64,000 nucleotides of DNA, taken from positions 1,343-65,342 of the forward strand of contig JAQUCE010000009.1 of the NCBI GenBank assembly GCA_028686345.1, written 5' to 3'. Position numbers and translations under genes: made by a program. Of this stretch, positions 13,373 to 31,354 are shown one piece after another (position 1 is the stretch's first letter; the number at the start of each line of letters is the position of its first letter). Source of the stretch: Kiritimatiellia bacterium (GTDB lineage: Bacteria; Verrucomicrobiota; Kiritimatiellia; RFP12; UBA1067). The notes under the pieces are model-generated. The model did not search any database. It was given only the letters and a program-made list of their open reading frames with translations, and was not told the DNA's origin.

Positions 13373-13558
13373 AAATTAATCTTAAATTTCAGGTTGCAAA
13401 AATCTAACTATACCAATTAGCCGAAAAAAATGAAAGCAGTTTGAATATTGTTTTTCTAGTCGCCTAAGCGACTAGATCCGCGCCGGGCGCGGAGTGTTAA
13501 AGTGCGCGAGTGCGCGAGTAAAAAGGTCGTGCCTTTTGTGCGTGAGCAACGCAGCTCC

Positions 13559-13775
13559 GATTTCCAATCGGAGATCTCCGGTTGGAAACCAAGGCGCGAA
13601 GCAAGGAGGTCGTTCGCTATGCGGGCGACTGCGAGTGGCACGCGAAGGAACAGAGCACGCACTCTGGGCGGTTGCGCCTTCGGTTTACGATAGCGGCGAC
13701 GATGCTGGTGGACGATTTTACAAATGATCCCAATCGTCCACCAGCATCGTCGCACAGCATCGTCAGTGAGCCACG
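13559..13775. repeat. dispersed repeat family R1 copy (composite, includes the aggaggtcgttcgctatgcgggcgac module)
   Basis: Shares the ccaatcggagat.tccggttggaaac and gatcccaatcgtc…catcgtcgcacagcatcgtcag modules with ~3824 and ~44872. Confidence 0.55.
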
Positions 13776-14391
13776 AGGGTGCACATATCTAGCGGGGTGA
13801 AAGTCCCTGTCATGGCGGGTTAAGCTCCTCGTCATGTATCGAGTGTTGGAGCTCCTGCGGAGTACCGCAGTATGGTGCGAACAATGGAGGTTAAGCGTAC
13901 ACAGAGCATACCATAGGCCGTAAGGGGAACCGTATTCCCCTAAAGCAATTCAGCTTCGTGAAATGGTCAAGATGCGGTGGGCGACGGTTTTGACGTTCCG
14001 GAAGCCCTCATCGTCCATACCGGAAAAGAACGGTTACTTTGGCAGAGACATCTGCCGGGGTTGGAATAAACACCGGAGCGCCCGGATTTTCTTAGGGACA
14101 GGCACTGATTTTTCTTCCGAACGACAACTCTTACATTCCGCAGTGCAACGCACAGGCAGGCAGCCAGTTTTTAGCTCTCACAGATGCACAGAGCTCTCTG
14201 GGGAATATGCCGAGGTGAAAGAAAACACCTGCGATTAGGTACAGCGAAGATGGTGTTCCTCCATAATGCAAATCACACACGCGTGCGTTAAATTTACTCT
14301 TAAATCAAGTTTGCGCTTGGCTAAACCTCATTTTACCGCTACTATGATACACACGTTAATTTACAAAAGACGATAGGTCAGGAATAAAAAT

Positions 14392-16554
14392 ATGATAGTG
14401 GTAATACTTATTGCGGCTCTTGCCGCTGTTAGCCTTGCGGCTTTTAATCATTATGGGTTAAAAAAGATTGATGCCGGAACTCCGCTGATGAAGGAGATTG
14501 CAGCGGCCATTCAGGAGGGAGCCGATGCCTTTATCAGGCTTGAATATCGGATTATCTTCTGGGTTTCGCTGGGGGTGATAGCTCTATTGCTCATTTTTGT
14601 CTCCTGGTCTGCGGCGGTGGCCTATGCCCTGGGGGCTTTTTTGAGTGCCAGCGCGGGGTGGGTGGGGATGAAAACCGCCGTGATTGCCAACGTGCGTGTC
14701 TCTAATACCGCACGTTTAACTAAAGACATTGGTAAAACACTGAAGGTTGCCTTTCAAGGGGGCAGTGTAATGGGCCTCTGCGTTGGCGGCTTTGCTCTGT
14801 TGGGGCTTGGTATCATCTATCTTGTTTTTGGTAAACTGCTCGGCCAGCTAGACCCGGTGAATCTGGTGTTTCACAAAAACTGGCTTGGGATCAGCGATAT
14901 ACCTTTTACAATGACTGTTTCGAGCTATGCGCTCGGTTGTTCCATTATCGCGATGTTCAACCGTGTGGGTGGTGGCATCTATACCAAGGCGGCCGACATG
15001 GGGGCTGATCTTGTGGGGAAAACCGAGGCGGGCATTCCCGAGGATGATCCGCGTAACCCGGCAACAATTGCGGATAATGTCGGCGATAATGTGGGTGATG
15101 TGGCTGGACTGGGCTCTGACCTGCTGGAGAGCTTTGTCGGCGCCCTGATCTCCGCCATTGTACTGGCCATCTATACCGCCTACTCCTCGCATGGAAGGGC
15201 TGATGAGATTGGCAACAGCTTGGTGCAGAAGCTGGTCGCCTTTCCGCTGGCTTTTGCCGCGGTTGGACTGTTTTCGTCAATTCTGGCGATCCTGTGGATG
15301 ATGCTGCGTAAGTCATCGGATAACCCACACAGGGAGCTTAACATGACAACCTTTGCCGGCGCCAGTTTGACTCTGGTGTTGGCTGGTGTTGTCTCATGGT
15401 TTATGTTCAGCGGCGAGAGCGTCGCAAATATCGACTTTCGTTTCGGGGTGTTCTCGCCTTGGCTGAGTGCTGTTTTCGGAATTATCGGCGGCATCTTGAT
15501 CGGCTATATCGCAGAGTTTTTTACCAGTTATGATTACAAGCCCACCCAGGATATCGCGGCAGCGTCACTCGAAGGCGCTGCCCTGACCATTACGCAGGGG
15601 CTCTCCGCAGGCATGCTCTCCGTGTTTCTGCCGGTTGCACTGCTGGGAACCTGCATAATCGCGGCACATTTTACGGCTGGCCTCTACGGCGTGGCCATGG
15701 CTGCGATCGGGATGCTCTCTTTTGTGACAGTCACAGTCTCGGTTGACACCTATGGACCGATTGCCGACAATGCCGGCGGCATCAGCGAGATGGCCAAACT
15801 CGATCCAGCCGTGCGCGATATCACTGACCAACTCGATGCTGTTGGTAACACCACCGCTGCCATTGGCAAAGGCTTTGCCATTGGTTCCGCGGCGCTGGCA
15901 ACGCTCTCGCTCTTTGTCTCGTTCCTCTACGCTCAGGCGGGTGCCGCCTCTGAGGGGGGCTTGGTTCTGATGCTCAATATGGTGGACCCTTTGACACTGG
16001 TCGGCGCTTTTGTCGGCGGTTCGCTGCCCTATCTCTTCTCCGGCATACTGATTCAAGCGGTTGCCAATGCAGCCCGCAAGATGGTGCAGGAGGTGCGGCG
16101 TCAATTCAAAGCGGATCCCGGCATTATGGCGGGCACCAGCAAGCCGGATTATCACACCTGTGTCACAATCTCCTCAGCCGGCGCTTTGAAGGAGATGAAA
16201 ATCCCCGCTATGATCGCTGTGCTCTCGCCCCTGGCGGCGGGCTTTATCTTCGGCCCTAACTTTGTCGGCGGACTGCTGATCGGTGCCACAATATCCTCTA
16301 TCATGCTGGCGCTCTTCACTGCAAACTCAGGCGGAGCTTGGGATAATGCGAAAAAATACGTTGAGAGCGGTCACTATGGTGGACGCGGCTCAGATGCCCA
16401 TAAAGCCGCCGTGGTGGGCGACACTGTCGGCGATCCGCTGAAAGATACGGTCGGCCCCTCGCTGGATATCCTGATCAAAATTATGGCGGTTGTCTCGCTG
16501 ATCGCGGTCTCTGTCTTCAGCAAACACAATCTTTTCTCATATTTTTTTAATTGA
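14392..16554 (+). CDS. hppA: membrane-bound proton/sodium-translocating pyrophosphatase (H+-PPase)
   Basis: 720 aa. Diagnostic motifs GGIYTKAADMGADLVGK and DNVGDNVGDVAG, with about 16 TM segments. Confidence 0.9.
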   Translation: MIVVILIAALAAVSLAAFNHYGLKKIDAGTPLMKEIAAAIQEGADAFIRLEYRIIFWVSLGVIALLLIFVSWSAAVAYALGAFLSASAGWVGMKTAVIANVRVSNTARLTKDIGKTLKVAFQGGSVMGLCVGGFALLGLGIIYLVFGKLLGQLDPVNLVFHKNWLGISDIPFTMTVSSYALGCSIIAMFNRVGGGIYTKAADMGADLVGKTEAGIPEDDPRNPATIADNVGDNVGDVAGLGSDLLESFVGALISAIVLAIYTAYSSHGRADEIGNSLVQKLVAFPLAFAAVGLFSSILAILWMMLRKSSDNPHRELNMTTFAGASLTLVLAGVVSWFMFSGESVANIDFRFGVFSPWLSAVFGIIGGILIGYIAEFFTSYDYKPTQDIAAASLEGAALTITQGLSAGMLSVFLPVALLGTCIIAAHFTAGLYGVAMAAIGMLSFVTVTVSVDTYGPIADNAGGISEMAKLDPAVRDITDQLDAVGNTTAAIGKGFAIGSAALATLSLFVSFLYAQAGAASEGGLVLMLNMVDPLTLVGAFVGGSLPYLFSGILIQAVANAARKMVQEVRRQFKADPGIMAGTSKPDYHTCVTISSAGALKEMKIPAMIAVLSPLAAGFIFGPNFVGGLLIGATISSIMLALFTANSGGAWDNAKKYVESGHYGGRGSDAHKAAVVGDTVGDPLKDTVGPSLDILIKIMAVVSLIAVSVFSKHNLFSYFFN

Positions 16555-17516: not shown

Positions 17517-18036
17517 ATGAATATTCTCCCAAATAGGTTAGGGCTTGTCTGCGTGTTGTCAATTAGCTGTGTGCTGAACAACATTGCGGCTTTCAATATT
17601 ACAATCAATAATGGGATATCCGCCTCAGCCTCCGCCACAAATGGCGCGGTTGTGCGCATTTATGCTAATGTTCCGGATCAAAATAAAGTGTTCAATAGCT
17701 GGGCAGGTAATATTACCGGAGTTGACGACCGTTACTCGCCCACGACTAGTGTCACTGTCGCGGAAGCTGATGTTACTCTGACGGCCACCTATGTCAATGC
17801 TCCTGAACAAAGTGACTGTCGCGGACAGCACGGTCAATATCGGCGCAAATGATTATGCGCCCGGCACGAAAGTCTCAATCAGCGCAGTTGAAAAAGCCTC
17901 GCTTGAATTCTCAGGTTGGTCGGTTACGCCGACCGGAACGGATCTCGGCTCTCTCTTTATTGGAACATCTGCTGAGACAGTGATTGAGGTGCCCAATGCA
18001 CTCGGGCATATAACAGTCAGCGCGGTGTATCAGTGA
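17517..18036 (+). pseudogene. small secreted protein with two InlB-B-repeat/Big-like domains, split by an apparent +1 frameshift near 17800-17850
   Basis: ORFs 17517..17852 (frame 0, signal peptide) and 17791..18036 (frame +1) each encode one domain of the same type (…ITINNG…FNSWAGNITG…VTLTATYV / …VTVADSTVNIG…FSGWSV…). Confidence 0.35.
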
Positions 18037-18047
18037 ATAATATTGAA

Positions 18048-21000
18048 ATGAGCAATAAATCCTATAGAGGTAAAAAGAACAACGATACGGGATCGGTCTT
18101 CAGGTCAATGCCGCTGCTGTGCCTGTCGGCCATTGCCGCCTTCTCGCTTTGCGCGGTGGCTGTTGCGGCGCTTACAGGTAAACCTGTCGCTGAACCCGAT
18201 GGCAGCGCGTTTGCCACCGCGTTGTTCAATCACTTGCGTTCCGATCCAGCCTTCAGCGTTGACGACCTTGTGGAGCGCTATATTTATGACCAGAATATTT
18301 TCACATACATAGCCCCTCCCGCCGCTGGTTACACCCTCTTTCAACCGGGAGCCACACTCTATCTTCCAGACAAAAACGAATTTTCGCGCGATTTTCTTGA
18401 TAACCTCGTCAGCTCTGAGGAGAGCGGCGATCACTGCGCATTCATCTGGATCTACGAAGATGCCCTCAGCCCCGGTCGCGAACTTGTGATCAGAAACGAC
18501 TATGATGTTGAGCTGGCCCGTATCGCCCGCGAACCGGGATACACCCCTGACTGGGTTGTGAATAGAATCTATCCGAATCTGGCACTCTATCCTCTAGCTT
18601 ACCAGAAGTATCTCGCCGAAATATTCGACCCCGCCCGCATCTGTATGCGCTATACCCTGATCGCGGGCGACTCCGCTCTTGTGGATTACGTTGATCTGAA
18701 AACAGAAAAATTTCTTTTGAGCCGCTCGCTTGCCTCGATGCAGCCAGCTACGATGGGTAGGGGTATCCCCGCATCGCACTCACTGACCAACCTGATGTTC
18801 ACCGCCGTTGAGCCACAGACAAACAACACCGTCAACCTGACCATCGGCTGGCCCGACAGCGGCCTGCCCACCAACCGGCTTGAGATATTCACCTGCGACA
18901 ACCTCTCCACCGGACTCTGGAACTCCGCCACAGTTGTAACAATCAATCTCGCCACCAACCGCTATCTCTGGACAGACTCCACCACAGCCCCGCGCCGCTT
19001 CTACCACTGCTTCGCCCTGCAGGACTCCGATGGAGATGGCATCACCACCGGACACGAAAAGCTCTTCTACGGTACTGACCCAGCTCTCTACGATACCGAC
19101 GTAGATGGTCTCTCGGACAGCTTCGAGCTCTTTGAAAACAGCTACACCAACACCATCCTCGGCGGTCCGGCCACACTCTGGACCGATCCTCTGGTCAAAG
19201 ACTCCGACGGCGATGGGCTGGATGACGGCGAGGAACGTCTGCTGGGAACCGATCCCTGGCGGATCGACTCCGATGGCGACCTCCTCTCCGATTACGAGGA
19301 GGTCAACGGCAACCCCGCCACCGACCCGCTTGATCCAGACAGCGATGATGACGGCCTTACCGATTACGAGGAGCAGGTGCTCGGCACCAATCCGCTCAAG
19401 GCCGATACCGATGGCGATGGCCTCACCGACTACGAAGAGGTTAACGGTGATCCAGCCACCAACCCTCTTCTCTGGAGCAGCGACTCCGACAACCTCAGCG
19501 ATGCGCAGGAGATTCTGCTCGGTACCGATCCCTTCAGCGCCGATACTGATGGTGATGGTCTGCCGGATGATGCCGAAGCGGTCCAGGTCGCCTCGCGTCC
19601 ATTCAGCTGGGAGTGGCACACCCTCACCAACGCTGTGAATATTTTCACGCATATGCCGGATGGCACAACCGGTGGTTTCGTATCAGAGCTGGCCCTGCCC
19701 TTCCCCGTCACAGTCGGCGGGGCCGTCCACACAAACATCGCCCTCTCTCTTGACGGTTATCTATTTCTGCTGAAATCAGGAGAGGCTCTTCCCTCCGAAC
19801 TGACGGTTGCCCCGTCCAATCTTTCGACAACCGCGCTGAACTCCCCGCATGAATTCATCGCACCCTACTGGAGCGACCTTCGTGCGTTTCCTTCATATGC
19901 CGGATCATCCATAAAAATGGCCGAGATAGCACCCACCAACGGCAACCGCCGCTGCGTCATCGAATACAAAAACCTCTGCGCCACCGGCATTGGAACTTAT
20001 GCCGACCACATCTCTTTCCAGATTGTGCTCACCGACAACCCGACCAACAACCTCATCACCGTCAACTACAACGATATCGCGCCGGTTTTGAACGGAGCCA
20101 ACGCTTGCATTGGAATACAGCGATCCGGTGCTCAGCAGTATGTTCGGGCATCCTACTCCTACAATCAGCCGGGAAGCATCTATAGCGGGCTCTCTCTCGC
20201 CTTCGCCCTCAATCCCGGCACCAATCCGCTGGAAAAAGATAGCGACCACGATGGACTCACCGACTACGAGGAGGTCAACGGCATTCCTGCCACCGATCCT
20301 CGTCAGCCCGACACCGACGGAGATGGACTTACGGATAAGTGGGAACGCGACAACAACATGAATCCCGCAGTCAATAATGATACCGATGGAATACCCAACA
20401 ACGGCGCGAATGAGGATTTTGATGGTGACGGCCTGACCAACGCTCAGGAGAACGACCTCGGCACCTCGGGTACAAGCGGTGACTCCGACGGCGATTTGAT
20501 CGGGGATGCCGCCGAATTAGCCAACGGCTCCGATCCGAATAATTCTGAAAGTTCCTCGTCCGGCGACCTTGTCCGAGCAGAGTTCTACTTCGGTGACCAC
20601 AGCGGCAGCAGCTCTGAGAAATACTGCCTGCGGCTCTCTCCCATGAACGGCATAGATCCGCGTGGAACCATCAGCATGGTCAACCTCAACTATGGTCAGT
20701 GTGAAACCAAGACCAACCTCCTCTATCGCGGTGAAGAGTACACCCTGACCCTTGAACATGCCGGCACCACAGAATCGGGATCGCCCGACTATGATTACAT
20801 CCTGAGGGTGACCGTCCCGCAGCCGCGCGTGATTGATGACCCCGACACTATCATCTGTGAGAACGAAGACAGCACCTCCTTCTACGCTCAGGGCAAGCAG
20901 GCCTACATCCGCATCGGCGGGCTTGACCTCGATATCGACCTAGACTATGATGGAACCGTGAACAACGACGGTTCAGAGGAACAGACTGAGGCCGGTCTCG

Positions 21001-22061
21001 GTGCTTTCACCGCTGTGAGCAACCGCGTGGCGATTGCTCTGCGGTCAACCGACTTTGTGACATGGACGGGCACGGCGGAGCTGGTAGTGCCATCGGGAAT
21101 TGAGGTGTATAGCGCACAGATTGGGGGAACTCCGCTGAGCACTCTCACATTCTCAAGTTCATCCCTGCCGCAAACGCTTTATGTCACCAGCTCGGAACCG
21201 GGCGAGTACACGCTGAAACTAGTTCCGCAGGGATTAAACTCCGGAGATGCTGTGAAGTTGACCGTTGTGAAGGTGGATATGAAAGTTTCTCATCCTCAAA
21301 ATCCCGGGCCAACCGGATCGGCAGCGAAATATATTAATAGTCCGAATATTGGTTCTGCTAATAATTTATTTTCCACTTGGCAAAATGAGTTGTTTCAAGC
21401 AAGTGTGAATATTGAACCCGTAGAACTAGTTGACAATCTTCCGGCAGGATTCATTAAATGGATAGTGGCGGGGTTCACTATTTCAGATAACACTACTGAG
21501 TATATTTTTGCTTGGTCCTCATCCGGTATCAAAGAAATCGTGATCGAGTTATCTTCATGCGGGATAACCAAAAAAGTTTGTGTGGATATTCCAAATGTTG
21601 GAGTTCTTGGTCAAACTGCTGCAGCAATGTTGGTTGGACCTACAGCTGCAACGCTTATTGCAAGTTATGCGCAAGATTCTATAGATTATTCAAATAACAA
21701 CTTTCCCATAGGCCCACACAGAGATGCTTATCGTCATGCTTATTGGAACTCACTCTCAGCCTCGCACATTCTTGTTACAAAGCAACAAGCATTACTTGTA
21801 ACGACAGGACACGAGCATGACAATCGCGATGACGATCATCAACAAGCCTTTAACTCTACAATGGATTTGCATAATAACTCTGTCGGAATCGCCATTAATC
21901 ACACAACCTTTCTCGGGACACCGGATGAAGCGGTTATCCAGAATGACATTTCTTTGCAATATTCGAATGGTGGTCTTTGGATATGGGATGGCGGGGGATC
22001 ACAAGAGAATAGTGAAGGCATTCTTGTACAATCAAATGGTTTAAAAATCTATTCCAAATAG
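18048..22061 (+). CDS. large secreted multidomain protein: signal peptide, thrombospondin-type-3-like Ca-binding repeats, conserved 'pre-toxin-like' constant domain, variable C-terminal domain CT1 (candidate polymorphic toxin)
   Basis: Signal peptide MSNKSYRGKK…LCLSAIAAFSLCAVAVAA. Many DxDxDGLxDxxE repeats. The constant block (…GDLVRAEFYFGDHSGS…TVVKV) recurs in two downstream orphan ORFs. The AT-rich, His-rich C-terminal ~260 aa (…GPHRDAYRHAYWN…TGHEHDN…DLHNNSVG…) is unique to this gene. Confidence 0.7.
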   Translation: MSNKSYRGKKNNDTGSVFRSMPLLCLSAIAAFSLCAVAVAALTGKPVAEPDGSAFATALFNHLRSDPAFSVDDLVERYIYDQNIFTYIAPPAAGYTLFQPGATLYLPDKNEFSRDFLDNLVSSEESGDHCAFIWIYEDALSPGRELVIRNDYDVELARIAREPGYTPDWVVNRIYPNLALYPLAYQKYLAEIFDPARICMRYTLIAGDSALVDYVDLKTEKFLLSRSLASMQPATMGRGIPASHSLTNLMFTAVEPQTNNTVNLTIGWPDSGLPTNRLEIFTCDNLSTGLWNSATVVTINLATNRYLWTDSTTAPRRFYHCFALQDSDGDGITTGHEKLFYGTDPALYDTDVDGLSDSFELFENSYTNTILGGPATLWTDPLVKDSDGDGLDDGEERLLGTDPWRIDSDGDLLSDYEEVNGNPATDPLDPDSDDDGLTDYEEQVLGTNPLKADTDGDGLTDYEEVNGDPATNPLLWSSDSDNLSDAQEILLGTDPFSADTDGDGLPDDAEAVQVASRPFSWEWHTLTNAVNIFTHMPDGTTGGFVSELALPFPVTVGGAVHTNIALSLDGYLFLLKSGEALPSELTVAPSNLSTTALNSPHEFIAPYWSDLRAFPSYAGSSIKMAEIAPTNGNRRCVIEYKNLCATGIGTYADHISFQIVLTDNPTNNLITVNYNDIAPVLNGANACIGIQRSGAQQYVRASYSYNQPGSIYSGLSLAFALNPGTNPLEKDSDHDGLTDYEEVNGIPATDPRQPDTDGDGLTDKWERDNNMNPAVNNDTDGIPNNGANEDFDGDGLTNAQENDLGTSGTSGDSDGDLIGDAAELANGSDPNNSESSSSGDLVRAEFYFGDHSGSSSEKYCLRLSPMNGIDPRGTISMVNLNYGQCETKTNLLYRGEEYTLTLEHAGTTESGSPDYDYILRVTVPQPRVIDDPDTIICENEDSTSFYAQGKQAYIRIGGLDLDIDLDYDGTVNNDGSEEQTEAGLGAFTAVSNRVAIALRSTDFVTWTGTAELVVPSGIEVYSAQIGGTPLSTLTFSSSSLPQTLYVTSSEPGEYTLKLVPQGLNSGDAVKLTVVKVDMKVSHPQNPGPTGSAAKYINSPNIGSANNLFSTWQNELFQASVNIEPVELVDNLPAGFIKWIVAGFTISDNTTEYIFAWSSSGIKEIVIELSSCGITKKVCVDIPNVGVLGQTAAAMLVGPTAATLIASYAQDSIDYSNNNFPIGPHRDAYRHAYWNSLSASHILVTKQQALLVTTGHEHDNRDDDHQQAFNSTMDLHNNSVGIAINHTTFLGTPDEAVIQNDISLQYSNGGLWIWDGGGSQENSEGILVQSNGLKIYSK

Positions 22062-22072
22062 TGAGGTAATTA

Positions 22073-22708
22073 ATGATGAAGTTTTTTTTAATTATAATGT
22101 TCTGTGTCTGTAGTAATGCTGTAATTAACGCAGTTGAGTTAGGCGAAAAATATACAACTTTAATTTTTCCCGAAAACGTAAATCTTGGTATGACTTGCAA
22201 CATGATTCAGACTCAAAGACCTGACGCTAAAAAAATTAAAGGTGTAATTCGTTCTCAAAATACGAATGTTGTCGTTCTGGCTGAACTGAAAGTTGATGCT
22301 GTTCCTTTAGTCTGTTATCAATACCATTTTATTGATAATCATTTAAGAGCTATAACTAAAAGCATTGGGCATGGAGCAAATCGAGACGAGCAAATGGTCA
22401 AACGTCTTCATGAAGCTATTTCAAAGGATTTAAAAAAACAGGCGGATGAAAAAATATTGCGCTTGAACACTGAACTTGAGCAGATACCGGTCGAGCTTTG
22501 GAAGGATGAAAAAAATGGCAAATGTGTCTATTTTGTGGACACTTCAAATGACACATCGGTTATAGTATTTGATCCGAAATACTTTGTGAAAAAAGACTTT
22601 TTTATTACTGCTGATGAAATGCAGCAAGTTATCCCAGCGGTAGAGAGTGTACATAAAGCTATCGAATCATCAAAGAAGCAAAAAAACAAAAAAGCAAATC
22701 AAGAGTAA
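22073..22708 (+). CDS. candidate cognate immunity protein 1 (small exported protein, AT-rich)
   Basis: Starts 11 nt after the stop of the large gene. N-terminal hydrophobic signal. Composition is markedly lower GC than the flanks. Confidence 0.45.
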   Translation: MMKFFLIIMFCVCSNAVINAVELGEKYTTLIFPENVNLGMTCNMIQTQRPDAKKIKGVIRSQNTNVVVLAELKVDAVPLVCYQYHFIDNHLRAITKSIGHGANRDEQMVKRLHEAISKDLKKQADEKILRLNTELEQIPVELWKDEKNGKCVYFVDTSNDTSVIVFDPKYFVKKDFFITADEMQQVIPAVESVHKAIESSKKQKNKKANQE

Positions 22709-22713
22709 ATACT

Positions 22714-24663
22714 ATGAAAGAAGTCTTGTTAATATTGAAAAAAACTGGATTGCTTAAAGGTTGGATTATAAACAATTCGAATAACGCTCAAAGCAGTATT
22801 GCTGGCGATCTGGTCCGAGCTGAGTTTTACTTCGGTGACCACAGCCCCGGCCACTCCGAAAAATACTGCCTGCGGCTCACTCCCATGAACGACATAGATC
22901 CGCGCGGAACCATCAGCATGGTCAACCTCAACTACGGCGTATGTGAAACCAAGACCAACCTCCTCTATCGCGGTGAAGAGTACACCCTGACCCTTGAACA
23001 TGCTGGAACCACAGAATCCGGATCGCCTGACTATGACTATACCCTTGAAGTCACCGTCCCGCAGCCGCGCGTGATTGATGACCCCGACACTATCATCTGT
23101 GAGAACGAAGACAGCAATCCATTCTACGCTCAGGGCAAGCAGGCCTACATCCGCATCGGCGGTCTTGACCTTGATGTTGATCTCAATGGCGACGGAATAG
23201 TGAACAACATTGATTCAGAGGAACTCACTGAGGCTGATCTCGGCGCGTTTACAGCAGTCAGCAATCGCGTGGCCATCGCCCTGCGTTCAACCGACTTTGT
23301 GGCTTGGACGGGCTCGGCGGAGCTGGTTGTGCCGTCGGGTATTGAGGTGTATAATGTTCAAAGTGGGGGAGCTCCGCTGAGTTCGTTGACGTTTTCATCC
23401 CTGCCGCAAACGCTTTATGTCACCAGCTCGGAACCGGACGAGTACACGCTGAAACTAGTTCCGCAGGGATTAAACTCCGGAGATGCTGTGAAAGTTACGG
23501 TTGTTAAGGTGGAGTTGGATATTAGGGAGACTGCTCAACCTCAAAACAGGGTTGGACGAGATGATCCGCGTGTTTTGGACCGCGTAAAGAATCGCATTCT
23601 GGTATGGGCGAACAGTGGGGCTAACACCATTACTTTTGATCTAATCAAACCCCCCAATATCATGGGGCCTGTATGGATTCAGATAGAAGATCTGAAAGGG
23701 TTGAATTCTGGCATGCCCCATTTCGAACGGTTGGATGTGGCATCAACTGCATTCACGTATACCGTCGCCGATGACAATGATGACCCCGATCTACTTGTCC
23801 GATATGGGGCCGATCTCGATTCCGATGGCACATTGTCAGGATTCAATGAAACAAAGGGAACGTATGAGGTTTACGGTGTCACGGCAGAGGACTATGCCGA
23901 GTCTAGGAATAATTATAATTGGTACTATCTTCCCGGTTCTCTTTACGATTTGGCAGACCAGTTGCATAAACGATTCGCTAATGGCACCTTTGGCGCTGGC
24001 GATTTTATTCCGACGAGCGTTTCGGGCAGTGCGACACTCAACACCACTCGGCTGACCCACTATTTTGGAGCCAGTCTCACAGATGCAGGCTTTATCTCGC
24101 TTGGAGGACGCCAGTACTATGCGGCAACTGTGACATTTCCGATCTATCATTACATCGACAATTCCGATGCCTCGGAGTTGATCAGGGAAAGTGCTCACAC
24201 GAAAGACGGTCTTGATGCATTAGTTGCAAGTCTCTCATATGCGACAGTTGCAGCCGAGTATACCGCTGCTTCTGGCGGCGTAACACGTTCAGTAAAATTA
24301 TCCTTGGATGGGAGAACCTTCCAGTTCGGTCCGGCCGGAAGCATCGGGCTAGGAGGTGTTAGCGTAAACTCAGCAGCCCCTTATTCAAGTGCAGGAAGTA
24401 TAACCCTGCAAGTTACGCTCAGCGGAGTAACCTATAATATCGGCACAGATGCTATCATTGATCTGACGATTCATGATGTCTTTGATTTTGATTACTTTAC
24501 GACGGGGTGGCTGGCTGGGTTCAGCGATTCATCGCAGTCCGCAGCCATAATCCAAAACGGTTTCAGCAAGACCGGCAGCACCACCAATGCTGGTCAAATA
24601 GGTCTTGTTGAAGTGGAAATTGATGGTTCCGTCATAATTACCGGAAGGACTGTTACACCATGA
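22714..24663 (+). CDS. orphan module 2: 5'-truncated copy of the constant domain fused to a different C-terminal domain (CT2)
   Basis: Residues ~30-265 are ~85-90% identical to residues ~830-1085 of the 18048..22061 protein. The sequence diverges completely after …TVVKVE. Confidence 0.6.
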   Translation: MKEVLLILKKTGLLKGWIINNSNNAQSSIAGDLVRAEFYFGDHSPGHSEKYCLRLTPMNDIDPRGTISMVNLNYGVCETKTNLLYRGEEYTLTLEHAGTTESGSPDYDYTLEVTVPQPRVIDDPDTIICENEDSNPFYAQGKQAYIRIGGLDLDVDLNGDGIVNNIDSEELTEADLGAFTAVSNRVAIALRSTDFVAWTGSAELVVPSGIEVYNVQSGGAPLSSLTFSSLPQTLYVTSSEPDEYTLKLVPQGLNSGDAVKVTVVKVELDIRETAQPQNRVGRDDPRVLDRVKNRILVWANSGANTITFDLIKPPNIMGPVWIQIEDLKGLNSGMPHFERLDVASTAFTYTVADDNDDPDLLVRYGADLDSDGTLSGFNETKGTYEVYGVTAEDYAESRNNYNWYYLPGSLYDLADQLHKRFANGTFGAGDFIPTSVSGSATLNTTRLTHYFGASLTDAGFISLGGRQYYAATVTFPIYHYIDNSDASELIRESAHTKDGLDALVASLSYATVAAEYTAASGGVTRSVKLSLDGRTFQFGPAGSIGLGGVSVNSAAPYSSAGSITLQVTLSGVTYNIGTDAIIDLTIHDVFDFDYFTTGWLAGFSDSSQSAAIIQNGFSKTGSTTNAGQIGLVEVEIDGSVIITGRTVTP

Positions 24664-25637
24664 ACATATTTCAATGCTTTTTATGCGCATTTACTTTCCT
24701 GATGACGCTTGCGATTATAAACCCGCCCGTCGCACGTGGGTCACAACAACCAGACGATGAAACGAGTTTGAACATTATAGCGACGAATGCCTTTCAGATT
24801 CTAAGAGATGTTCCCTCTATTGGACTGGAACAGAGCCTGTCGGGAATTGAACAAATAATAAAGACTCATCATCGACTGTTACGGGAAACAGACTTATCGA
24901 AAAAGCACTTTTCTTTAGTTCTTGCTGATGCCGTGGCATATGCCCTTATTACAGAAATTCATCGCGCTGACATTACCCGTCTTGGCACAGACCCAGATAT
25001 GACACCCAAGAGTAAATCGTTCAATAAGACGACGGCTGTTCGGTTATGGAAGGCGAACATGCCTGACTTTCCGGCTTCGATCCGGCAAATTCTACGGAAG
25101 GATGGTGCTATCACGGGCTATATTTCAAGGCGATCTTGTGAAGAGGACGTTTTCAGTGGGGAGATGATCGATAAAGCCCCACTTGATACGATCCGGCCTC
25201 GTATTCGAGAACTTCATGAGAAGGCATTGCGCCCTATAGCTTTGGGCAAGAATCCTTCCGTTGATGAACAATTTCTCAGCGTACTTGTACAATGCCAGTC
25301 ATTCCGCGATATCGATATGATCATTAATTTGTATGAAAATGGCGATCTGCCGAGTGACTCGATTTCGCTTAGAGCTGCCATTGATGAAGTGATGAAGCCG
25401 TCTGTCGGAAAACGCGTTGACGATGGAATGAAGGCATCCGCATTCAAAGTATGGTTGACATTTAGACGCTATTATCCAGGAGGAACGAGCCATGATCCTG
25501 TTGGACCGATTGAGGAGTACTATTTAAAGCAAGCCCTTACGCTTGCTCCATTCATGACCGATTCGAGTTCGCTTCCTGAATCTGCTAAGAAAGTATTGGT
25601 CAAGATGGGAATGGTTCAGGGTCAAACTGAAAAATAA
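24660..25637 (+). CDS. candidate immunity protein 2 (signal-peptide protein; start overlaps the CT2 stop, ATGA)
   Basis: 4-nt overlap with the upstream ORF. N-terminal signal MNIFQCFLCAFTFLMTLAIINPPVA. No recognisable family. Confidence 0.45.
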   Translation: MNIFQCFLCAFTFLMTLAIINPPVARGSQQPDDETSLNIIATNAFQILRDVPSIGLEQSLSGIEQIIKTHHRLLRETDLSKKHFSLVLADAVAYALITEIHRADITRLGTDPDMTPKSKSFNKTTAVRLWKANMPDFPASIRQILRKDGAITGYISRRSCEEDVFSGEMIDKAPLDTIRPRIRELHEKALRPIALGKNPSVDEQFLSVLVQCQSFRDIDMIINLYENGDLPSDSISLRAAIDEVMKPSVGKRVDDGMKASAFKVWLTFRRYYPGGTSHDPVGPIEEYYLKQALTLAPFMTDSSSLPESAKKVLVKMGMVQGQTEK

Positions 25638-25656
25638 AAATAAAAATGAGCCATTA

Positions 25657-28575
25657 ATGTCGTCTACTTGCTGGACAGTCAACTACAACGATATCACGCC
25701 GGTTTTGAACGGCGCGAACGCCGCCGTCGGCCTTCAGCGCCCCGGTGCTCAGCAGTATGTTCGGACATCCTACTCCTTCAATCAGCCCGGCACTTTTTAC
25801 ACTGGACTCTCCCTGGCCTTCGCTCTCAATCCCGGCAGTAATCCGCTGGAAAAAGATAGCGACCACGATGGACTCACCGACTACGAGGAGGTCAACGGCA
25901 TTCCTGCCACCGATCCTCGTCAGCCCGACACTGATGGCGATGGGCTCACGGACGGGTGGGAGCGTGACAACAACATGAATCCCGCAGTCAATAATGATAC
26001 CGATGGAATACCTAACAACGGCGCGAATGAGGATTTTGACGGCGACGGCCTGACCAACGCGCAGGAGAACGACCTCGGCACCTCGGGTACAAGCGGTGAC
26101 TCCGACGGAGATTTGGTCGGCGACGCCGCCGAATTCGCAAACGGCTCCGATCCGAATAATTCTGAAAGTTCCTCGTCCGGCGACCTTGTCCGAGCAGAGT
26201 TCTACTTCGGTGACCACAGCGGCAGCCACTCCGAAAAATACTGCCTGCGGCTCTCACCCATGAACGGCATAGATCCGCGCGGGCCCATCAATATGGTTAA
26301 TCTCAACTACGGACAATGTGAGACAAAGGAAAATCTCTTATACCGAGGCGAAGAGTACACCCTGACCCTTGAACATGCAGGCACATCAAGATCCGGATCG
26401 CCCGACTATGACTATACCCTTGAAGTCACCGTCCCTCAGCCCAACGTGATCGATGACCCTGATGCCATTATCTGTGTGAACAACGACAGCACCTCATTCT
26501 ACGCTCAGGGCAAGCAGGCCTGCATCCGCATCGGCGGGCTTGACCTCGATATCGACCTAGACTATGATGGAACCGTGAACAACGATAAATCAGAGGAACA
26601 GACCGAGGCCGATCCCGGCGCTTTCACCGCAGTCAGCAACCGTGTGGCGATAGCCCTGCGCACAATGGATTCTGTCACATGGACAGGAACTGCCGAGCTG
26701 GTTGTGCCGACGGGGATCGAAGTTTACGCAGCCCCAACCGGCGGCACACCGCTGAGCAGCTTCACGTTTAACAGCAGCTCATTGCCCCAGACGCTCTACG
26801 TCATGAGCTCGGAGCCGGGCGTGTATACGCTGCGGCTTGTTCCGGCGGGGCTGAATTCCGGGGATGCGGTGGAGTTGACGGTTGTGAAGGTTGAGTTCGT
26901 CTATGCTCAAGGCGAAAATGAGGGAGAGCCGATAGAAGGCGATCTGGGCCTTTTCACTCCATCTTCTGGAGTGAATGCGGGAATACCGATATATGATACT
27001 CCTGATGTCGACTTGGCTTTCGAAATTGGAGGACTTTACTCTAACACGCTTGATTCTGTTAATTTGACATATTTTGATGCCCGCGTGACCTTAACCGAGA
27101 CTGGCAATGATACCCTTGTCTTCACAAACGCTGGATTCGCTCTAACTTTTATTGCTCCTCTTTTAGCTGACAGCAATGTTCTGGAGTCTGTTCGCGTTTC
27201 GGTCACGGCCTCTTCATATGGCATTACCAACGCCCAATACGAGTGCTGGGAAACAACTTCGTCCTCACTGTCATTCGTAAATGAGACGACTGCGATAATC
27301 ACATCGCTTAGCGGTCTGAGCAGCAATGTTGTAGATATAATGTTACTTCAGCTAAGTGATATGGAAGGCGAATTCAGCTTCAACTTGATGGAGACATCGA
27401 CTGATTCATGCTGTTTTCAGAGTACCGAAATCTCAGCGACTTTAGTTAATATTTCAACCTTAACTGTTAACGCCGATACACTACACATATCCTTGAACAA
27501 CTTTGGTTTATACTCAAACACCGTGTTTTCAGTGAATGAAACGGGAGGAGAGGTCAAAGTTTTTAGAAACTTTGATGAACCGCTGTCGACAACTATTCCC
27601 GATATAGCAGTTCCCGATTTCCTGCCGTGGAAAGTTAAAATACATGGAATTATTGACCCGGAGAGAGTCTCACCTCTGTTAATCTCAACCACTGTGTACG
27701 AGTGCAGATCGACGACTTTCTCGGCTATATCCAATTCATTAATCTCAGACCAGAAATTTATTATTGTTCCTGATGACATCACTTCTCAGGATGTACCTTC
27801 CGGCTATGAGGTAATCAACATTAATGCTGTTGAACTGGACTGGACAGATGCGACATCGGAAGATCTAACGCTTGCCTTTGAGCAGTATGCTATGCTGAAT
27901 GTTGCGGGGTGCTCCAAAAACAAGAAGGTCCAGCCGGACGCTGTTGTGCTCCAGTCACTTCCTTGGCAGCACCGGGTTGGGCTGGGACTCGACCCTGAGA
28001 ACAGAATAAGAAAACCCTACATTGAAATGGGATATTCCGCTATTCGTGACTATCACGCCTCGGTCAGCGACACATTGAACAAATATATTAAAGGCAAGCA
28101 ATTATGGTACTCCATGAGCCATGGCGCTTTGACGGACGGCACCCCTTATTCCGTGTTTCAGGGGTTGAAGTTCAAAGACGGCGGTATAACAAAAAACCAA
28201 TTGGATAACCTTAATCTTAATTATCGACTTGTTGTAGCTGACGGATGTTGCTCCGCCCATGCATCTCTAGATTCCGTCGAAGCAGCCAGAACATCCAGCA
28301 CGCTGACTAAGGCTGCGCAGGCATTTGCCGACAGTTTTGGTCCAGATGTAGCTTACATGGGATGGGGTTGGACCATGACGCCGAATGCGGCGCAGCTCTG
28401 GTCATCGGAGTTCATTAACAACCTGAAGTATATGTCGGGTATCAAGAGGGGCAGGACTGTGGATGAGGCGCATGCAGAATTTATGGGTGACCATACCCAA
28501 GCAGCTGATGCAAAATTAATGAAGGTTTACGGAAATATTGATGCTGTAATTGAAAAAAGAGGAGGTGATGAATAA
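25657..28575 (+). CDS. orphan module 3: longer 5'-truncated copy of the constant region (includes TSP3 repeats) fused to a third unrelated C-terminal domain (CT3, possible clan-CD-like Cys peptidase)
   Basis: Homology to the full-length gene begins abruptly at ~25682 (aligned with ~20062) and ends at …TVVKVE (~26893). CT3 ends with …YSMSHGALTDG…(45 aa)…RLVVADGCCSAH, reminiscent of a caspase/gingipain-type His-Gly/Cys dyad. Confidence 0.6.
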   Translation: MSSTCWTVNYNDITPVLNGANAAVGLQRPGAQQYVRTSYSFNQPGTFYTGLSLAFALNPGSNPLEKDSDHDGLTDYEEVNGIPATDPRQPDTDGDGLTDGWERDNNMNPAVNNDTDGIPNNGANEDFDGDGLTNAQENDLGTSGTSGDSDGDLVGDAAEFANGSDPNNSESSSSGDLVRAEFYFGDHSGSHSEKYCLRLSPMNGIDPRGPINMVNLNYGQCETKENLLYRGEEYTLTLEHAGTSRSGSPDYDYTLEVTVPQPNVIDDPDAIICVNNDSTSFYAQGKQACIRIGGLDLDIDLDYDGTVNNDKSEEQTEADPGAFTAVSNRVAIALRTMDSVTWTGTAELVVPTGIEVYAAPTGGTPLSSFTFNSSSLPQTLYVMSSEPGVYTLRLVPAGLNSGDAVELTVVKVEFVYAQGENEGEPIEGDLGLFTPSSGVNAGIPIYDTPDVDLAFEIGGLYSNTLDSVNLTYFDARVTLTETGNDTLVFTNAGFALTFIAPLLADSNVLESVRVSVTASSYGITNAQYECWETTSSSLSFVNETTAIITSLSGLSSNVVDIMLLQLSDMEGEFSFNLMETSTDSCCFQSTEISATLVNISTLTVNADTLHISLNNFGLYSNTVFSVNETGGEVKVFRNFDEPLSTTIPDIAVPDFLPWKVKIHGIIDPERVSPLLISTTVYECRSTTFSAISNSLISDQKFIIVPDDITSQDVPSGYEVININAVELDWTDATSEDLTLAFEQYAMLNVAGCSKNKKVQPDAVVLQSLPWQHRVGLGLDPENRIRKPYIEMGYSAIRDYHASVSDTLNKYIKGKQLWYSMSHGALTDGTPYSVFQGLKFKDGGITKNQLDNLNLNYRLVVADGCCSAHASLDSVEAARTSSTLTKAAQAFADSFGPDVAYMGWGWTMTPNAAQLWSSEFINNLKYMSGIKRGRTVDEAHAEFMGDHTQAADAKLMKVYGNIDAVIEKRGGDE

Positions 28576-29519
28576 TGTTAAAATTTATCATAACTGTTCT
28601 TATCATTTGTGTTGCTCGACAGATTTCATATTGTCAAAACTTGTCAGAAATTGATTATGATTATGCGTGTGATTACTGTAAACGGATTATCAAGCGTATA
28701 GGTTTGAATGAAACAATCTTCAATGGTATTCTGCAAGAATTATCACCCCAAACGGTATATATTGAAAAAAAATTCAACTTACGAGCTGAAACACTTAAAA
28801 TTCACACATCACGGCTTTTTATGAGAATTAATCATAAGACAAAAAGCTTGCAGGTAGTGAATTGCAAATTGGATGATTTTGTTAAAAAGGACCCTATGAA
28901 GATACCCGGGTTGTCAATCACCGAAGCGATAGACAAAGCCATGTTCTATATAAATAAACTAGACGTGGATCTGCCGAAGGAGATGTCACTGAAGAAGGTA
29001 CAGTTCGACAAAGACTATCCTCACTGCTGGGAAGTCCGCTGGGGACCGAGTTACGGAGGGTACGATTATGACGATTTCGTTGCCCCATACGAACAAAGTA
29101 TCATGGTCGTATTTCATGAAACAATTGGTTTTTGTATTTATGCTTGCGGGAATGATTTTCCAGCACCTATAAGCACTGTGACTAAAGTATCGAAAGAGGA
29201 TGCGGTCAGACGTGCAGAAAAAGCGGCTCCAATGGTCATGAAAACACCTTATTACAAAATGGCGAGAGTGCCAGGGTTCAAGGTAAGCGGTCTGGACAAA
29301 GCGGAATTGCTCATCGCTGCACCTAACTGGCTGCTTGATCCGTCCCGTGCCCAATGGATACGTCAGGAGGTGCCAGAGGAGTCACGTCTTTGCTGGGTTA
29401 TTACCTTGCTGACTGTTGATACAGTGAAACGAGAAGACGGAATGTTGCCAATTCCTCCAAAGATTGTTGTGTATATCGATGCTGCGACCGGAGAGATCGT
29501 CGGTGCGAATTTCACTTAG
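28575..29519 (+). CDS. candidate immunity protein 3 (signal-peptide protein, AT-rich; start overlaps the CT3 stop)
   Basis: TAATG overlap. N-terminal MLKFIITVLIICVARQISYC. Several Cys pairs. Low GC. Confidence 0.45.
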   Translation: MLKFIITVLIICVARQISYCQNLSEIDYDYACDYCKRIIKRIGLNETIFNGILQELSPQTVYIEKKFNLRAETLKIHTSRLFMRINHKTKSLQVVNCKLDDFVKKDPMKIPGLSITEAIDKAMFYINKLDVDLPKEMSLKKVQFDKDYPHCWEVRWGPSYGGYDYDDFVAPYEQSIMVVFHETIGFCIYACGNDFPAPISTVTKVSKEDAVRRAEKAAPMVMKTPYYKMARVPGFKVSGLDKAELLIAAPNWLLDPSRAQWIRQEVPEESRLCWVITLLTVDTVKREDGMLPIPPKIVVYIDAATGEIVGANFT

Positions 29520-30795
29520 GTTTCCTGATTTTGAACAACGCCTTCTGTCTTTAGAGATTGACACCGATCATGACGGTCTCACGGACAAAGTAGAGGCGGA
29601 AATCGGCACCGATTCACGTCAGCCTGATGCCGATGGCGACGGCTTTGGTGATGGCTGGGAGGTTGCTAACAACATGAACCCTCTGGTTAATAACACAACT
29701 AATGGAGACCCCGACAATGATCCCGGAGCCGACCCTGATAAAGACGGCTTGACTAATTACGACGAATATCTGAATAATACCAATCCCTTCAAAAAAGACA
29801 GTGATGATGACGGCGTAAATGATATAATCGAAATCGCTCAAGGATCAAAGCCGATGGACGGCTCCGATGGCGGACTGCCACCGCCCGCGGATGACATTCT
29901 GGAGCTGCCCTTCAGCGTCGGCGGCGACTGGGCCGCCTGGGAGATGACCGTCTCCGGCATCAGTGGGTCCGACACCCGCATCATGAAACTTAGTACCGAC
30001 GCCCCCGGCGGATCGGAGAACGTGACATTGAAACTGCATAAAGGTAACTCATACAGAGTGACAATGAGTTGGCTGGGCTCCGGCGAGCATGTCGATCCGT
30101 ACTGGTACTGCTGGGAGGCCAAGATCGGCGGCCTGCCCACCAACCGGCTTGAGATATTCACCTGCGACAACCTCTCCACCGGACTCTGGAACTCCGCCGC
30201 AGTTGTAACACTCGATCTCACCACCAACCGCTATCTCTGGACAGACTCCACCACAGCCCCGCGCCGCTTCTACCACTGCTTCGCTCTGCAGGATTCAGAT
30301 GGAGATGGCATCACCACCGGACACGAAAAGCTCTTCTATGGTACTGACCCAGCTCTCTACGACACCGACGGCGATGATCTCTCGGATAGCTTCGAGCTCT
30401 TTGAAAACAGCTACACCAACACCATCCTCGGCTGCCCGACCACACTCTGGAGCGATCCCCTGGTCAAAGACTCCGATGGCGATGGGCTGGATGACGGAGA
30501 GGAACGTCTGCTGGGAACCGACCCCTGGCGGATCGACTCCGACGGCGACCTCCTCTCCGATTACGAGGAGGTCAACGGCAACCCCGCCACCGACCCGCTT
30601 GATCCAGACAGCGATGATGATGGTCTTACCGATTACGATGAGCAGGTGCTCGGCACCAATCCGCTCAAGGCCGATACCGATGGCGATGGCCTCACCGACT
30701 ACGAGGAGGCCAACGGAATTCCTGCCACCGATCTCCGTCAGCCCGACACCGACGGGGACGGACTCACGGATAAGTGGGATGTAATTTCCGTCCAC
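29464..30795 (+). pseudogene. remnant of the toxin N-terminal/TSP3 region lacking signal peptide and C-terminal domains, with an internal repeat-mediated deletion
   Basis: ~30124-30725 matches ~18858-19425 of the full-length gene, then jumps directly to sequence matching ~20277-20343 (…DTDGDGLTDKW). Similarity ends there. The rest of the 562-aa ORF is probably non-coding read-through that overlaps the next gene. Confidence 0.5.
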
Positions 30796-30958
30796 CGCAT
30801 AGCGGCGGACATACTGAAAGCAACGCAGTATATGCCCGCTATGCGGTGGATGACTGATAAACAAGCCGCAACTCGGGGCGGAGTTTTAAATCGTAATCCG
30901 CTATCGCACAAAATACGACGCTTGACACACGAAGTGCAATTCGTGTATTTTATAGCGC

Positions 30959-31354
30959 ATGAACAGCACTGCAGGAAAACAAGAGATAGCTTCAGGAGCC
31001 AAAGAGCCCTTGTCAAGATGGACCTTTCTAACCAATCATGCCCATGTTTTATTGTGTTTGGCCAAATCACCGGATATGCGCATTCGGGATCTGGCAGATG
31101 CGGTGGGAATAACTCAGCGTGCTGTTCAGCGCATTATTGCAGAGCTTGCTGAAGAGAGATATATTGATATCAAGCGCGATGGCCGCTGCAATAAATACAC
31201 GATGAACACAGCGATGCGCTTGAAGCATCCGGTTGAGTCGCATCGGATGGTAGCGGATCTGTTGCGCTTAATAACGGAGTGCTCTCATTCAATTGCGGAG
31301 TGTCAAAAGATGCAGCCGAAATCGTTGGAGGCAGCAGACAGGAGCTCTGAATGA
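30959..31354 (+). CDS. winged-helix transcriptional regulator (ArsR/MarR-like HTH)
   Basis: HTH segment …RIRDLADAVGITQRAVQRIIAELAEERYIDIKRDGR…. 4-nt overlap (ATGA) with the downstream MFS gene. Confidence 0.5.
   Translation: MNSTAGKQEIASGAKEPLSRWTFLTNHAHVLLCLAKSPDMRIRDLADAVGITQRAVQRIIAELAEERYIDIKRDGRCNKYTMNTAMRLKHPVESHRMVADLLRLITECSHSIAECQKMQPKSLEAADRSSE

Follow-up and report, generated by a model that had tools for sequence, protein, structure and literature searches.

A probable polymorphic toxin-immunity locus on a TSP3-repeat scaffold in a Kiritimatiellia chromosome

Introduction

The chromosome of a Kiritimatiellia bacterium (assembly GCA_028686345.1, contig JAQUCE010000009.1) carries what is very probably a polymorphic toxin-immunity locus, made up of the gene of a full-length exported protein, here called A, and of spare cassettes downstream of it. 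The locus lies within a stretch of 64,000 nucleotides (positions 1,343 to 65,342 of the contig), which is called the window in what follows. A preliminary description of the window had already read the layout as that of a toxin-immunity array. This reading is now supported by a related array in a metagenome (L004), by the mobility of the C-terminal module of A, by a family of proteins that share the first constant domain of A and end in diverse tails, and by the neighbourhoods of that family, in which a gene with a signal sequence follows closely in six cases out of six.

Organization of the locus

The open reading frames (ORFs) of A, of two orphan cassettes, B and C, and of the partner gene that follows each of them have the coordinates given in the preliminary description, as checked against the ORF list. 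The features of the locus, all on the forward strand (+), are the following.

18048..22061 (+): gene A, full-length protein of 1337 aa (ORF list; start codon ATG, with an in-frame GTG at 18033)
20571..20918 (+): D1, conserved beta-sandwich of ~115 aa, first half of the constant block (family search, model)
20919..21275 (+): D2, second beta-sandwich of the constant block, ending in ...TVVKV, the recombination junction (alignment, model)
21276..22061 (+): CT-A, candidate toxin module, a small beta-sandwich and then a helical DUF6973 domain (Pfam)
22073..22708 (+): immA, 211 aa, N-terminal signal sequence, candidate immunity protein for CT-A (position, homologues)
22714..24663 (+): B, orphan cassette of 649 aa without signal sequence (constant block 22780..23511; CT-B 23512..24663)
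24660..25637 (+): immB, 325 aa, signal sequence, candidate immunity protein for CT-B (position, ATGA overlap)
25657..28575 (+): C, orphan cassette of 972 aa without signal sequence, starting inside the mid domain (ORF list, alignment)
25657..26151, 26152..26892 and 26893..28575 (+): parts of cassette C, namely the tail of the mid domain with TSP3, the constant block, and CT-C
28575..29519 (+): immC, 314 aa, signal sequence, candidate immunity protein for CT-C (position, TAATG overlap)
~29520..30790 (+; listed as 29464..31152): ORF D, chimeric degenerate remnant (nucleotide repeat, protein alignment)

From its N-terminus, A contains a signal sequence, an N-domain (aa ~240-340), TSP3 repeats, a NIDO-like domain called "mid" (aa ~540-730), further TSP3 repeats, D1, D2, and CT-A. 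The signal sequence was judged by eye from a charged N-terminus followed by MPLLCLSAIAAFSLCAVAVAAL, and the repeats are recognized by Pfam TSP3_bac with an E-value of 2.4e-35. The window proteins are annotated as hypothetical proteins (PHO37_02870-02890).

Each C-terminus is closely coupled to its partner gene, exactly as had been described. The stop codon of A and the start codon of immA are separated by an 11-nt gap, with GAGG upstream of immA, B and immB share an ATGA overlap, and C and immC a TAATG overlap. A hydrophobic, signal-like segment opens immA, immB, and immC, and none is found in B and C. The partner ORFs had been called small, a word that suits proteins of 211, 325, and 314 aa only loosely.

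A constant block with a single 3' boundary

Aligned with the C-terminal half of A, the B and C proteins are nearly identical to it within the constant block, and the similarity is gone right after ...TVVKV. At the nucleotide level, 20058-21277 of A matches 25675-26894 of C with 84.7% identity over 1223 nt, and 20562-21277 of A matches 22804-23513 of B with 86.2% identity over 716 nt. The constant blocks of B and C are 78% identical, which gives a pairwise range of 78-86% among the three copies. The repeats end at 21277 (A), 23513 (B), and 26894 (C), that is, at one 3' boundary to the base, and their 5' breakpoints differ. Such an arrangement exceeds chance expectation by far. The duplication with unequal 5' ends and the single point of divergence, both noted in the preliminary description, are therefore upheld. 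Beyond the junction, the C-termini of A, B, and C (261, 383, and 560 aa) are mutually unrelated.

Base composition also changes at the junction. The scaffold and the constant blocks have a GC content of 54-57%, and the values are lower in each tip and partner gene: 40.6% in CT-A and 34.3% in immA, 48.5% in CT-B and 44.9% in immB, 45.3% in CT-C and 41.6% in immC. This is consistent with horizontally exchanged modules and suggests that tips and partner genes were acquired in this way.

The constant block itself is structurally unremarkable. D1 carries the motifs FxFGDxSxSxSEKY ... HAGT ... PDYDY. An AlphaFold model covering aa 833-1337 of A (constant block and CT-A) shows D1 as a confident beta-sandwich, with a predicted local distance difference test (pLDDT) above 90, and D2 as a beta-sandwich of lower, moderate confidence. 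Apart from the match of CT-A discussed below, a fold search with this model returned generic Ig-like matches (invasin, intimin, S-layer proteins, macroglobulins), and hence no specific known adhesin or S-layer domain; the preliminary description had named such a domain as evidence against a toxin array. As modeled, the constant block is a pair of generic Ig-like beta-sandwiches that would serve as a spacer or adaptor; we treat D1 and D2 in this way because their fold is Ig-like and no catalytic fold was matched. The possibility that either of them is an autoprotease or another enzyme was dropped on the same grounds.

The domains of the body raise the question of whether A is instead an adhesin or stalk of the cell surface with variable antigens or variable binding specificity. 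The partial copies would then be silent cassettes of the pilE/pilS type that change the exposed tip, and the partner ORFs would encode either periplasmic proteins or lipoproteins with no relation to A, or chaperones that each serve one tip. TSP3, NIDO-like, and Ig-like domains are indeed usual in adhesins, similarity in NCBIfam is limited to CglD and MtsD, the fold matches of the constant block are Ig domains of invasin, intimin, and S-layer proteins, and CT-B and CT-C have no toxin signature. However, antigenic variation from silent cassettes normally involves no dedicated partner gene for each cassette. The nature of CT-A and of the tails found in relatives also bears on this alternative.

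CT-A, a mobile module related to the toxin BteO

CT-A matches the Pfam family DUF6973 (PF22322) with 48.0 bits for a cut-off of 27 (E 1.1e-12). The preliminary description could name no toxin family for the constant domain or for any of the three C-termini. This holds for the constant block, CT-B, and CT-C, but not for CT-A, and the correction strengthens the toxin interpretation. In the model, CT-A consists of a small beta-sandwich and a helical domain, and the latter has a BteO-like helical fold.

BteO is a type VI secretion system (T6SS) effector of Bacteroides fragilis GA3 with validated antibacterial activity (PDB 9UU0; PMC12541434). Its toxicity is seen only on targeting to the periplasm. 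It reportedly binds OmpA-C-like domains and has been published as a non-enzymatic OmpA binder; it is neutralized by BtiO, which has a signal peptide (PMC12541434). A profile made from CT-A and its homologues finds the BteO chain 9UU0 by sequence with an E-value of 0.057. The motifs AFRHxxW, HE, and DLxNNxxG align between the CT-A family and BteO, at an overall identity of 14-17%, and the aligned BteO fragment itself scores 50.0 bits on DUF6973. CT-A thus falls in the family of a validated antibacterial toxin (PMC12541434), which argues against an adhesin tip.

In CT-A, the invariant polar set of DUF6973 comprises D50, R53, H54, W57, H79, E80, N83, Q90, N93, D97, N101, and H109 (window 21576..22058). 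The motif-bearing parts of this set also align with BteO.

A second relationship is suggested by one member of the CT-A family, which has a faint match to Pfam wnt, and by the DLxNNxxG(R) motif of the family, which resembles the sNxxGR of the SAA-Wnt clade in helix 4. Both fit the "Min-Wnt/SAA" clade of Lipocone toxin tips (PMC12419801). The hallmarks of that clade are a core of four or five helices with a conserved His in H2, an acidic residue or His in H3, and an Asp in H4, together with the sNxxGR motif. Min-Wnt/SAA-clade domains are presented as polymorphic-toxin tips accompanied by periplasmic or membrane immunity proteins, and Min-Wnt-type domains are predicted to catalyze reactions on lipid head groups (PMC12419801). 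This prediction and the non-enzymatic action published for BteO (PMC12541434) are conflicting views.

A protein search found 11 proteins with the CT-A module, all annotated PF22322. Seven of them cover the module fully, with 42-70% identity, and have a different N-terminal part in each case; one comes from a metagenome-assembled genome (MAG) of a spirochaete (Rectinemataceae). All of them share the start boundary ...[LIV]KV|[ED]LKVTHPQNPGP, and D2-like domains ending in ...hKV|E/D also precede CT-A homologues outside the window. In all three contigs where the downstream region can be read, an immA homologue directly follows the CT-A homologue (L008, E 1.8e-13; L007, E 2.7e-5; L019, E 3e-6); the homologues in L007 and L019 are 41% identical. 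To judge from these comparisons, CT-A is a mobile module that moves together with its downstream gene among unrelated N-terminal scaffolds, which is the behavior expected of a toxin-immunity pair. Such joint travel across scaffolds and phyla is not expected of adhesin tips.

In L007 (3215..4464) and L019 (2158..3284), the immA-family gene has an additional C-terminal transmembrane anchor. A second small conserved ORF comes after it (L007_4099 vs. L019_3021, E 5e-9) and has no counterpart in the window. This ORF may encode a further immunity protein or an accessory part of the CT-A module.

Relatives of the constant block

The preliminary description had proposed C-terminal variability in relatives as a test, and L004, a contig from a Joint Genome Institute (JGI) metagenome, provides it. 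Its constant block is 74-76% identical to that of A. The first ORF of L004, which is cut, runs through the constant block to ...SVMKV|E, continues into a new C-terminus of 340 aa, and is followed by a signal-sequence ORF. The next copy, which has an interruption at 3140 to 3165, passes at ...TVVKV|E into another new C-terminus, of 420 aa, followed by a second signal-sequence ORF. The array closes with a third, truncated copy, an 80-aa fragment of D1. The window and L004 together show five mutually unrelated C-termini on one constant block, all starting right after ...V(V/M)KV.

More distant relatives were found by an exhaustive HMMER search of representative protein clusters with the 246-aa constant block as the query. 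At E<=1e-3, 228 representative proteins were matched, and 71 at E<=1e-10; in nearly all of the 228, the match is limited to the first ~115 residues of the block, which correspond to D1. HMMER was required to find this family: a word-indexed protein search yielded no more than a single close relative with the constant block as query and five fragments with a profile of D1, a scan of a genome collection gave one real relative, L001, and a metagenome scan with the constant-block alignment found nothing.

The proteins of the D1 family are large (800-3700 aa), and the remaining body of A is common to them. They have the N-domain (~100 aa), TSP3 repeats (17 of the 17 members scanned), a mid domain of ~180 aa in 1-6 copies, which gives a weak NIDO match in one relative, and further TSP3 repeats before D1. 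After D1, 119 members have tails of at least 150 aa, which form 24 similarity clusters, or about as many sequence classes. The largest class (55 of the 119) is an alpha/beta-hydrolase with an AHSLG nucleophile motif and a match to DUF900 (22.1 bits, cut-off 20.5). In the six neighbourhoods examined (L001, L005, L006, L009, L010, L018), the D1 protein is always followed by a signal-sequence ORF, either 0-43 nt downstream or overlapping.

L001, a Kiritimatiellia MAG contig (JAZSQE010000033.1, 5150..17022), repeats the layout of the window with a different tip. A 2345-aa TSP3/NIDO-like/D1 protein with a DUF900-type lipase tip is overlapped by a 353-aa signal-sequence ORF; an orphan lipase-tail fragment (13981..14421) and two further paralogues of the signal-sequence ORF follow. 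The three paralogues are ~345 aa long and start at 12184, 14514, and 15997. L006 has two such paralogues, which are 51% identical to each other. L001 also has a DNA methyltransferase-like ORF, seemingly inserted, at 13233..14135.

A further argument against variable adhesins is that the largest tail class consists of lipases with several paralogous partner genes behind them. Taken with the properties of CT-A, this makes the adhesin explanation very improbable, and a polymorphic toxin-immunity locus accounts better for the tails and for their partners.

One member of the family, P0132 (3737 aa, from a JGI metagenome, with the source name "RHS repeat-associated"), has TSP3 and D1 (aa 1445-1585) upstream of RHS repeats. 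Its tip is Lipase_3/Mbeg1-like, and PKD, cadherin-like, and beta-helix domains are present as well. D1 thus also occurs on a scaffold with an RHS cage, and this protein links it to the classical architecture of polymorphic toxins.

CT-B, CT-C, and their partners

Neither CT-B nor CT-C has a match in Pfam, NCBIfam, or PDB sequences, and a metagenome scan with CT-C found none either. When both were compared by phmmer, profile search, and hhalign with those tail classes of the D1 family that have more than one member, nine in number, no relative emerged. Among the partners, immA has no match in Pfam, and immB none in Pfam or NCBIfam. The C-terminus of immC has a sub-threshold match to PepSY, a peptidase-inhibitor propeptide domain (23.6 bits for a cut-off of 24, E 6.4e-5).

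Near the end of CT-C, within its final ~230 aa (27850..28575), the segments ...SMSHG... and ...VVADGCCS... are, by eye, reminiscent of caspase-like cysteine peptidases. We do not claim that CT-C is such a protease with immC as a PepSY-like inhibitor, since nothing but the sub-threshold PepSY score points to it.

Seven contigs from other samples, including one from the sample of L004, contain cassette C, immC, and ORF D in unchanged order, at 96-100% identity of the nucleotide sequence. Samples with this population include SRR22315503, SRR11702755, SRR30309667, and JGI 3300050213.

ORF D, the upstream gene, and the question of decay

The preliminary description had the locus extend from 17517 to 31152. 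The array of A, B, and C does lie in this span, but 17517..18036 is a separate gene outside the array, and the piece called ORF D had been left undescribed in the text.

ORF D is assembled from two sources. Its N-terminal 210 aa are 37% identical to aa 728-923 of A (TSP3 linker and half of D1) and, to judge from this alignment, derive from a divergent member of the family. The sequence is fused at ...IGG|LPTNRLEIF to a copy of the N-domain and TSP3 region of A, with 94.7% nucleotide identity between 30128-30729 and 18859-19460. After the copied part, the frame jumps from TSP3 to TSP3 and then decays to junk. Contigs from other samples that extend this far (L015, L016) show the same arrangement, with identities of up to 100%.

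Upstream of A lies one further feature:

17517..18036: small secreted gene with a signal sequence and two InlB-type B-repeats (Flg_new_2), frameshifted near 17800-17850 (Pfam)

This gene ends in a stop codon that overlaps the GTG at 18033, and it may represent a pseudogene, a sequencing error, or a gene for a co-transcribed accessory protein.

Such remnants suggest another explanation, in which a gene for a secreted multidomain enzyme was duplicated in tandem and is decaying, B, C, and D being functionless remnants and the small ORFs ordinary periplasmic proteins. In its favor are the clearly degenerate, chimeric state of ORF D, the frameshift in the B-repeat gene upstream of A, the interruption of the second L004 cassette, and the lack of signal sequences in B and C. 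However, the frames of B and C have remained open for 649 and 972 codons, through their unique C-termini, and these C-termini are not diverged copies, since they are unrelated to one another in both sequence and length and all set in at one exact position. The foreign GC content of the tip and partner modules, the 96-100% identity of the C-immC module in seven other samples, and the recurrence of the layout with different tips in L004 and L001 also argue against decay, which we consider even less probable than the adhesin explanation.

Comparison with known systems

The criteria for polymorphic toxin systems used here follow Zhang et al. (2012), as summarized in PMC12419801: a conserved body with hypervariable C-termini after a sharp junction, a tip directly followed by its own partner gene and inherited with it, orphan tip-immunity cassettes downstream of the full-length gene, and the same tip on different scaffolds. 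A conserved body with such C-termini is present in three copies in the window and in two or three in L004. The tips are directly followed by partner genes, which are putatively protective, and joint inheritance is seen for CT-A, whose homologues are followed by immA homologues in three of three contigs with other scaffolds. That a tip is toxic and is neutralized by its cognate protein has support from homology only, in that BteO, a member of DUF6973, acts as a toxin in the periplasm and is countered by BtiO (PMC12541434). Orphan cassettes are represented by B/immB, C/immC, and the lipase fragment of L001. The same tip is seen on different scaffolds for CT-A only.

The closest parallels in layout are Rhs/YD-repeat and CdiA loci, in which a conserved exported protein likewise carries a variable tip after a sharp junction, with the cognate gene next to it. 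Their orphan cassettes are, as here, promoter-less and signal-less and retain a stretch of the constant region with differing 5' breakpoints, and their tip/immunity modules are also lower in GC content than the scaffold. In contrast, the bodies differ. Rhs proteins have RHS/YD repeats and a PxxxxDPxGL junction, neither of which is found in A, B, or C with Pfam. CdiA/CdiB systems have a two-partner secretion (TPS) domain, filamentous haemagglutinin (FHA) repeats, a VENN motif, and an adjacent cdiB, none of which is detected in the locus or its flanking genes with Pfam and NCBIfam. Cargo of T6SS or of type VII secretion systems (T7SS) is marked by PAAR, VgrG, LXG, or WXG or by neighboring secretion genes, and none of these occurs in A, B, C, or the ~30 window ORFs scanned, which also gave no RHS match. 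The statement of the preliminary description that RHS, FHA, LXG, and PAAR signatures are missing is thereby corroborated by Pfam and NCBIfam scans. The locus does not qualify for MafB-like families either. Its junction, unlike those of Rhs and CdiA, is the last strand of an Ig-like domain (...TVVKV|E/D), its body combines TSP3, NIDO-like, and Ig-like domains, export apparently occurs by a Sec signal sequence alone, and all candidate immunity proteins are exported.

The pair formed by CT-A and immA resembles BteO-BtiO in that both tips match DUF6973 and both partner genes encode a signal peptide, which fits periplasmic action. However, BteO is small, has an N-terminal transmembrane helix, and is delivered by a T6SS, whereas CT-A forms the end of a Sec-exported stalk protein of 1337 aa and no T6SS genes were seen in the window. 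Moreover, BtiO mimics OmpA-C, and immA has no detectable OmpA-C-like domain. Min-Wnt/prok-SAA Lipocone tips are, like CT-A, soluble helical tips of polymorphic toxins (Burroughs et al., eLife 2025; PMC12419801). In its passages on carriers, that article lists type I (T1SS), type IV (T4SS), and type IX (T9SS) secretion systems, T6SS, T7SS, MuF, cystatin-like carriers, and others, and these passages name no TSP3-repeat carrier (PMC12419801); nor did the full-text searches on TSP3 proteins and polymorphic toxins lead to this article.

Calcium-binding TSP3 repeats in a large exported protein are shared by A with CglD and MtsD of Myxococcus. The likeness is confined to the repeats (98 bits for a cut-off of 400 in NCBIfam). 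The two Myxococcus proteins function in gliding motility or in the cohesion of cells, and neither has C-terminal cassettes that could be exchanged.

Full-text literature searches linked neither TSP3 or thrombospondin nor Kiritimatiellota to polymorphic toxins or immunity proteins, and the name DUF6973 was found in no paper of the collection searched. The carrier architecture is absent from Pfam and NCBIfam, and D1 is present in at least 228 clusters. The preliminary description had suspected an undescribed delivery family on a TSP3 scaffold, and this stands: the carrier family is apparently real, coherent, and undescribed, but it belongs to a well-established class of system.

The proteins could also be secreted effectors directed against eukaryotic grazers or hosts, or against extracellular polymers, the partner ORFs being export chaperones or inhibitors that shield the producer during secretion. 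No contact-dependent delivery apparatus was found among the ~30 window ORFs scanned, Lipocone and lipase domains can act on eukaryotic lipids too (PMC12419801), and the genome context is rich in glycan-degrading enzymes. Nevertheless, the closest characterized relative, BteO, kills Bacteroides from the periplasm (PMC12541434), and arrays of orphan cassettes, each accompanied by its own exported partner, typify kin competition among bacteria (Zhang et al., 2012, as summarized in PMC12419801). Besides, arrays of immunity paralogues such as that of L001 are sensible only if other bacteria deliver the toxin. A target other than bacteria is, in our view, the least probable of the alternatives considered.

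Other genes of the window

The flanking genes are housekeeping or metabolic: H+/Na+-pyrophosphatase, a major facilitator superfamily (MFS) transporter, a carboxylase subunit, pyruvate:ferredoxin oxidoreductase (PFOR), an aldolase, a GH141-like beta-helix protein, and PurE, the last recognized by eye alone. On the reverse strand, 35919..37418 (-) encodes 499 aa matching Nramp (aa 30-262) and the uroporphyrinogen decarboxylase-like URO-D (aa 287-476), an unusual combination that may be a fusion or a miscalled ORF. At 4930..6102 (-), ~12 kb upstream of the toxin locus, an ORF has Sel1 repeats and a Peptidase_C39-like domain.

Proposed mechanism

Within a polymorphic toxin-immunity locus, A would be exported by Sec, and its stalk of calcium-binding TSP3 and Ig-like domains would present or release an exchangeable tip. 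Acting from within the periplasm, CT-A would damage the envelope of competing cells, and exported immA would neutralize it in the periplasm of the producer, the other exported partners acting likewise on their own tips. By analogy with Rhs and contact-dependent growth inhibition (CDI) orphan arrays, the orphan cassettes could replace the expressed tip through homologous recombination in the constant block, and their immunity genes may protect against neighbors that express those tips. ORF D would be a scar of an earlier recombination. The small beta-sandwich that opens each cassette is, speculatively, a candidate entry module comparable to those of CdiA-CT and colicins.

Several points weigh against the interpretation as a toxin-immunity locus. 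Toxicity, neutralization, and delivery are inferred for the proteins of the locus. CT-B and CT-C have no detectable relatives or recognizable fold, and since no relative or known family was found they are assigned as toxins by position. The generic Ig-like domains of the constant region also build adhesins. The model of the DUF6973 domain is of moderate confidence (pLDDT 70), and immA shows no detectable similarity to an OmpA-C-like domain, the mode of action of BtiO, so the BteO mechanism may not carry over to CT-A. The arrangement of C, immC, and ORF D is unchanged in the seven contigs from other samples, so that no switching event was observed. Finally, the ~30 ORFs scanned in the window include no component of a type V secretion system (T5SS), a T6SS, or a T7SS, nor any CdiB-like component.

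More tentatively, with confidence somewhat short of even, we propose that the TSP3/NIDO-like/D1 body is an undescribed, Sec-only trafficking platform, widespread in Kiritimatiellota and possibly in other members of the Planctomycetes-Verrucomicrobia-Chlamydiae (PVC) group. It would present or release periplasm-acting toxins to neighboring diderm bacteria without T5SS, T6SS, or T7SS, with the beta-sandwich as the entry module. Among its tips would be DUF900 lipases and BteO/Min-Wnt-like domains, as well as several wholly new ones, of which CT-B and CT-C are examples.

Significance

DUF6973 keeps invariant polar residues, yet the sole member studied has been reported as non-enzymatic, so that conflicting claims exist on one family. 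At least four tips without recognizable family (CT-B, CT-C, and the two of L004), each with a partner gene, are candidates for new toxin and immunity folds. A toxin of the BteO/Min-Wnt type, so far known from delivery by a T6SS, would also ride on a Sec-exported stalk, which raises the question of how it enters diderm cells.

Kiritimatiellota degrade glycans and abound in guts, sediments, and digesters, and hardly any of them have been cultured; to our knowledge, nothing has been known of how they compete. The locus would give them a toxin system with a carrier architecture of its own.

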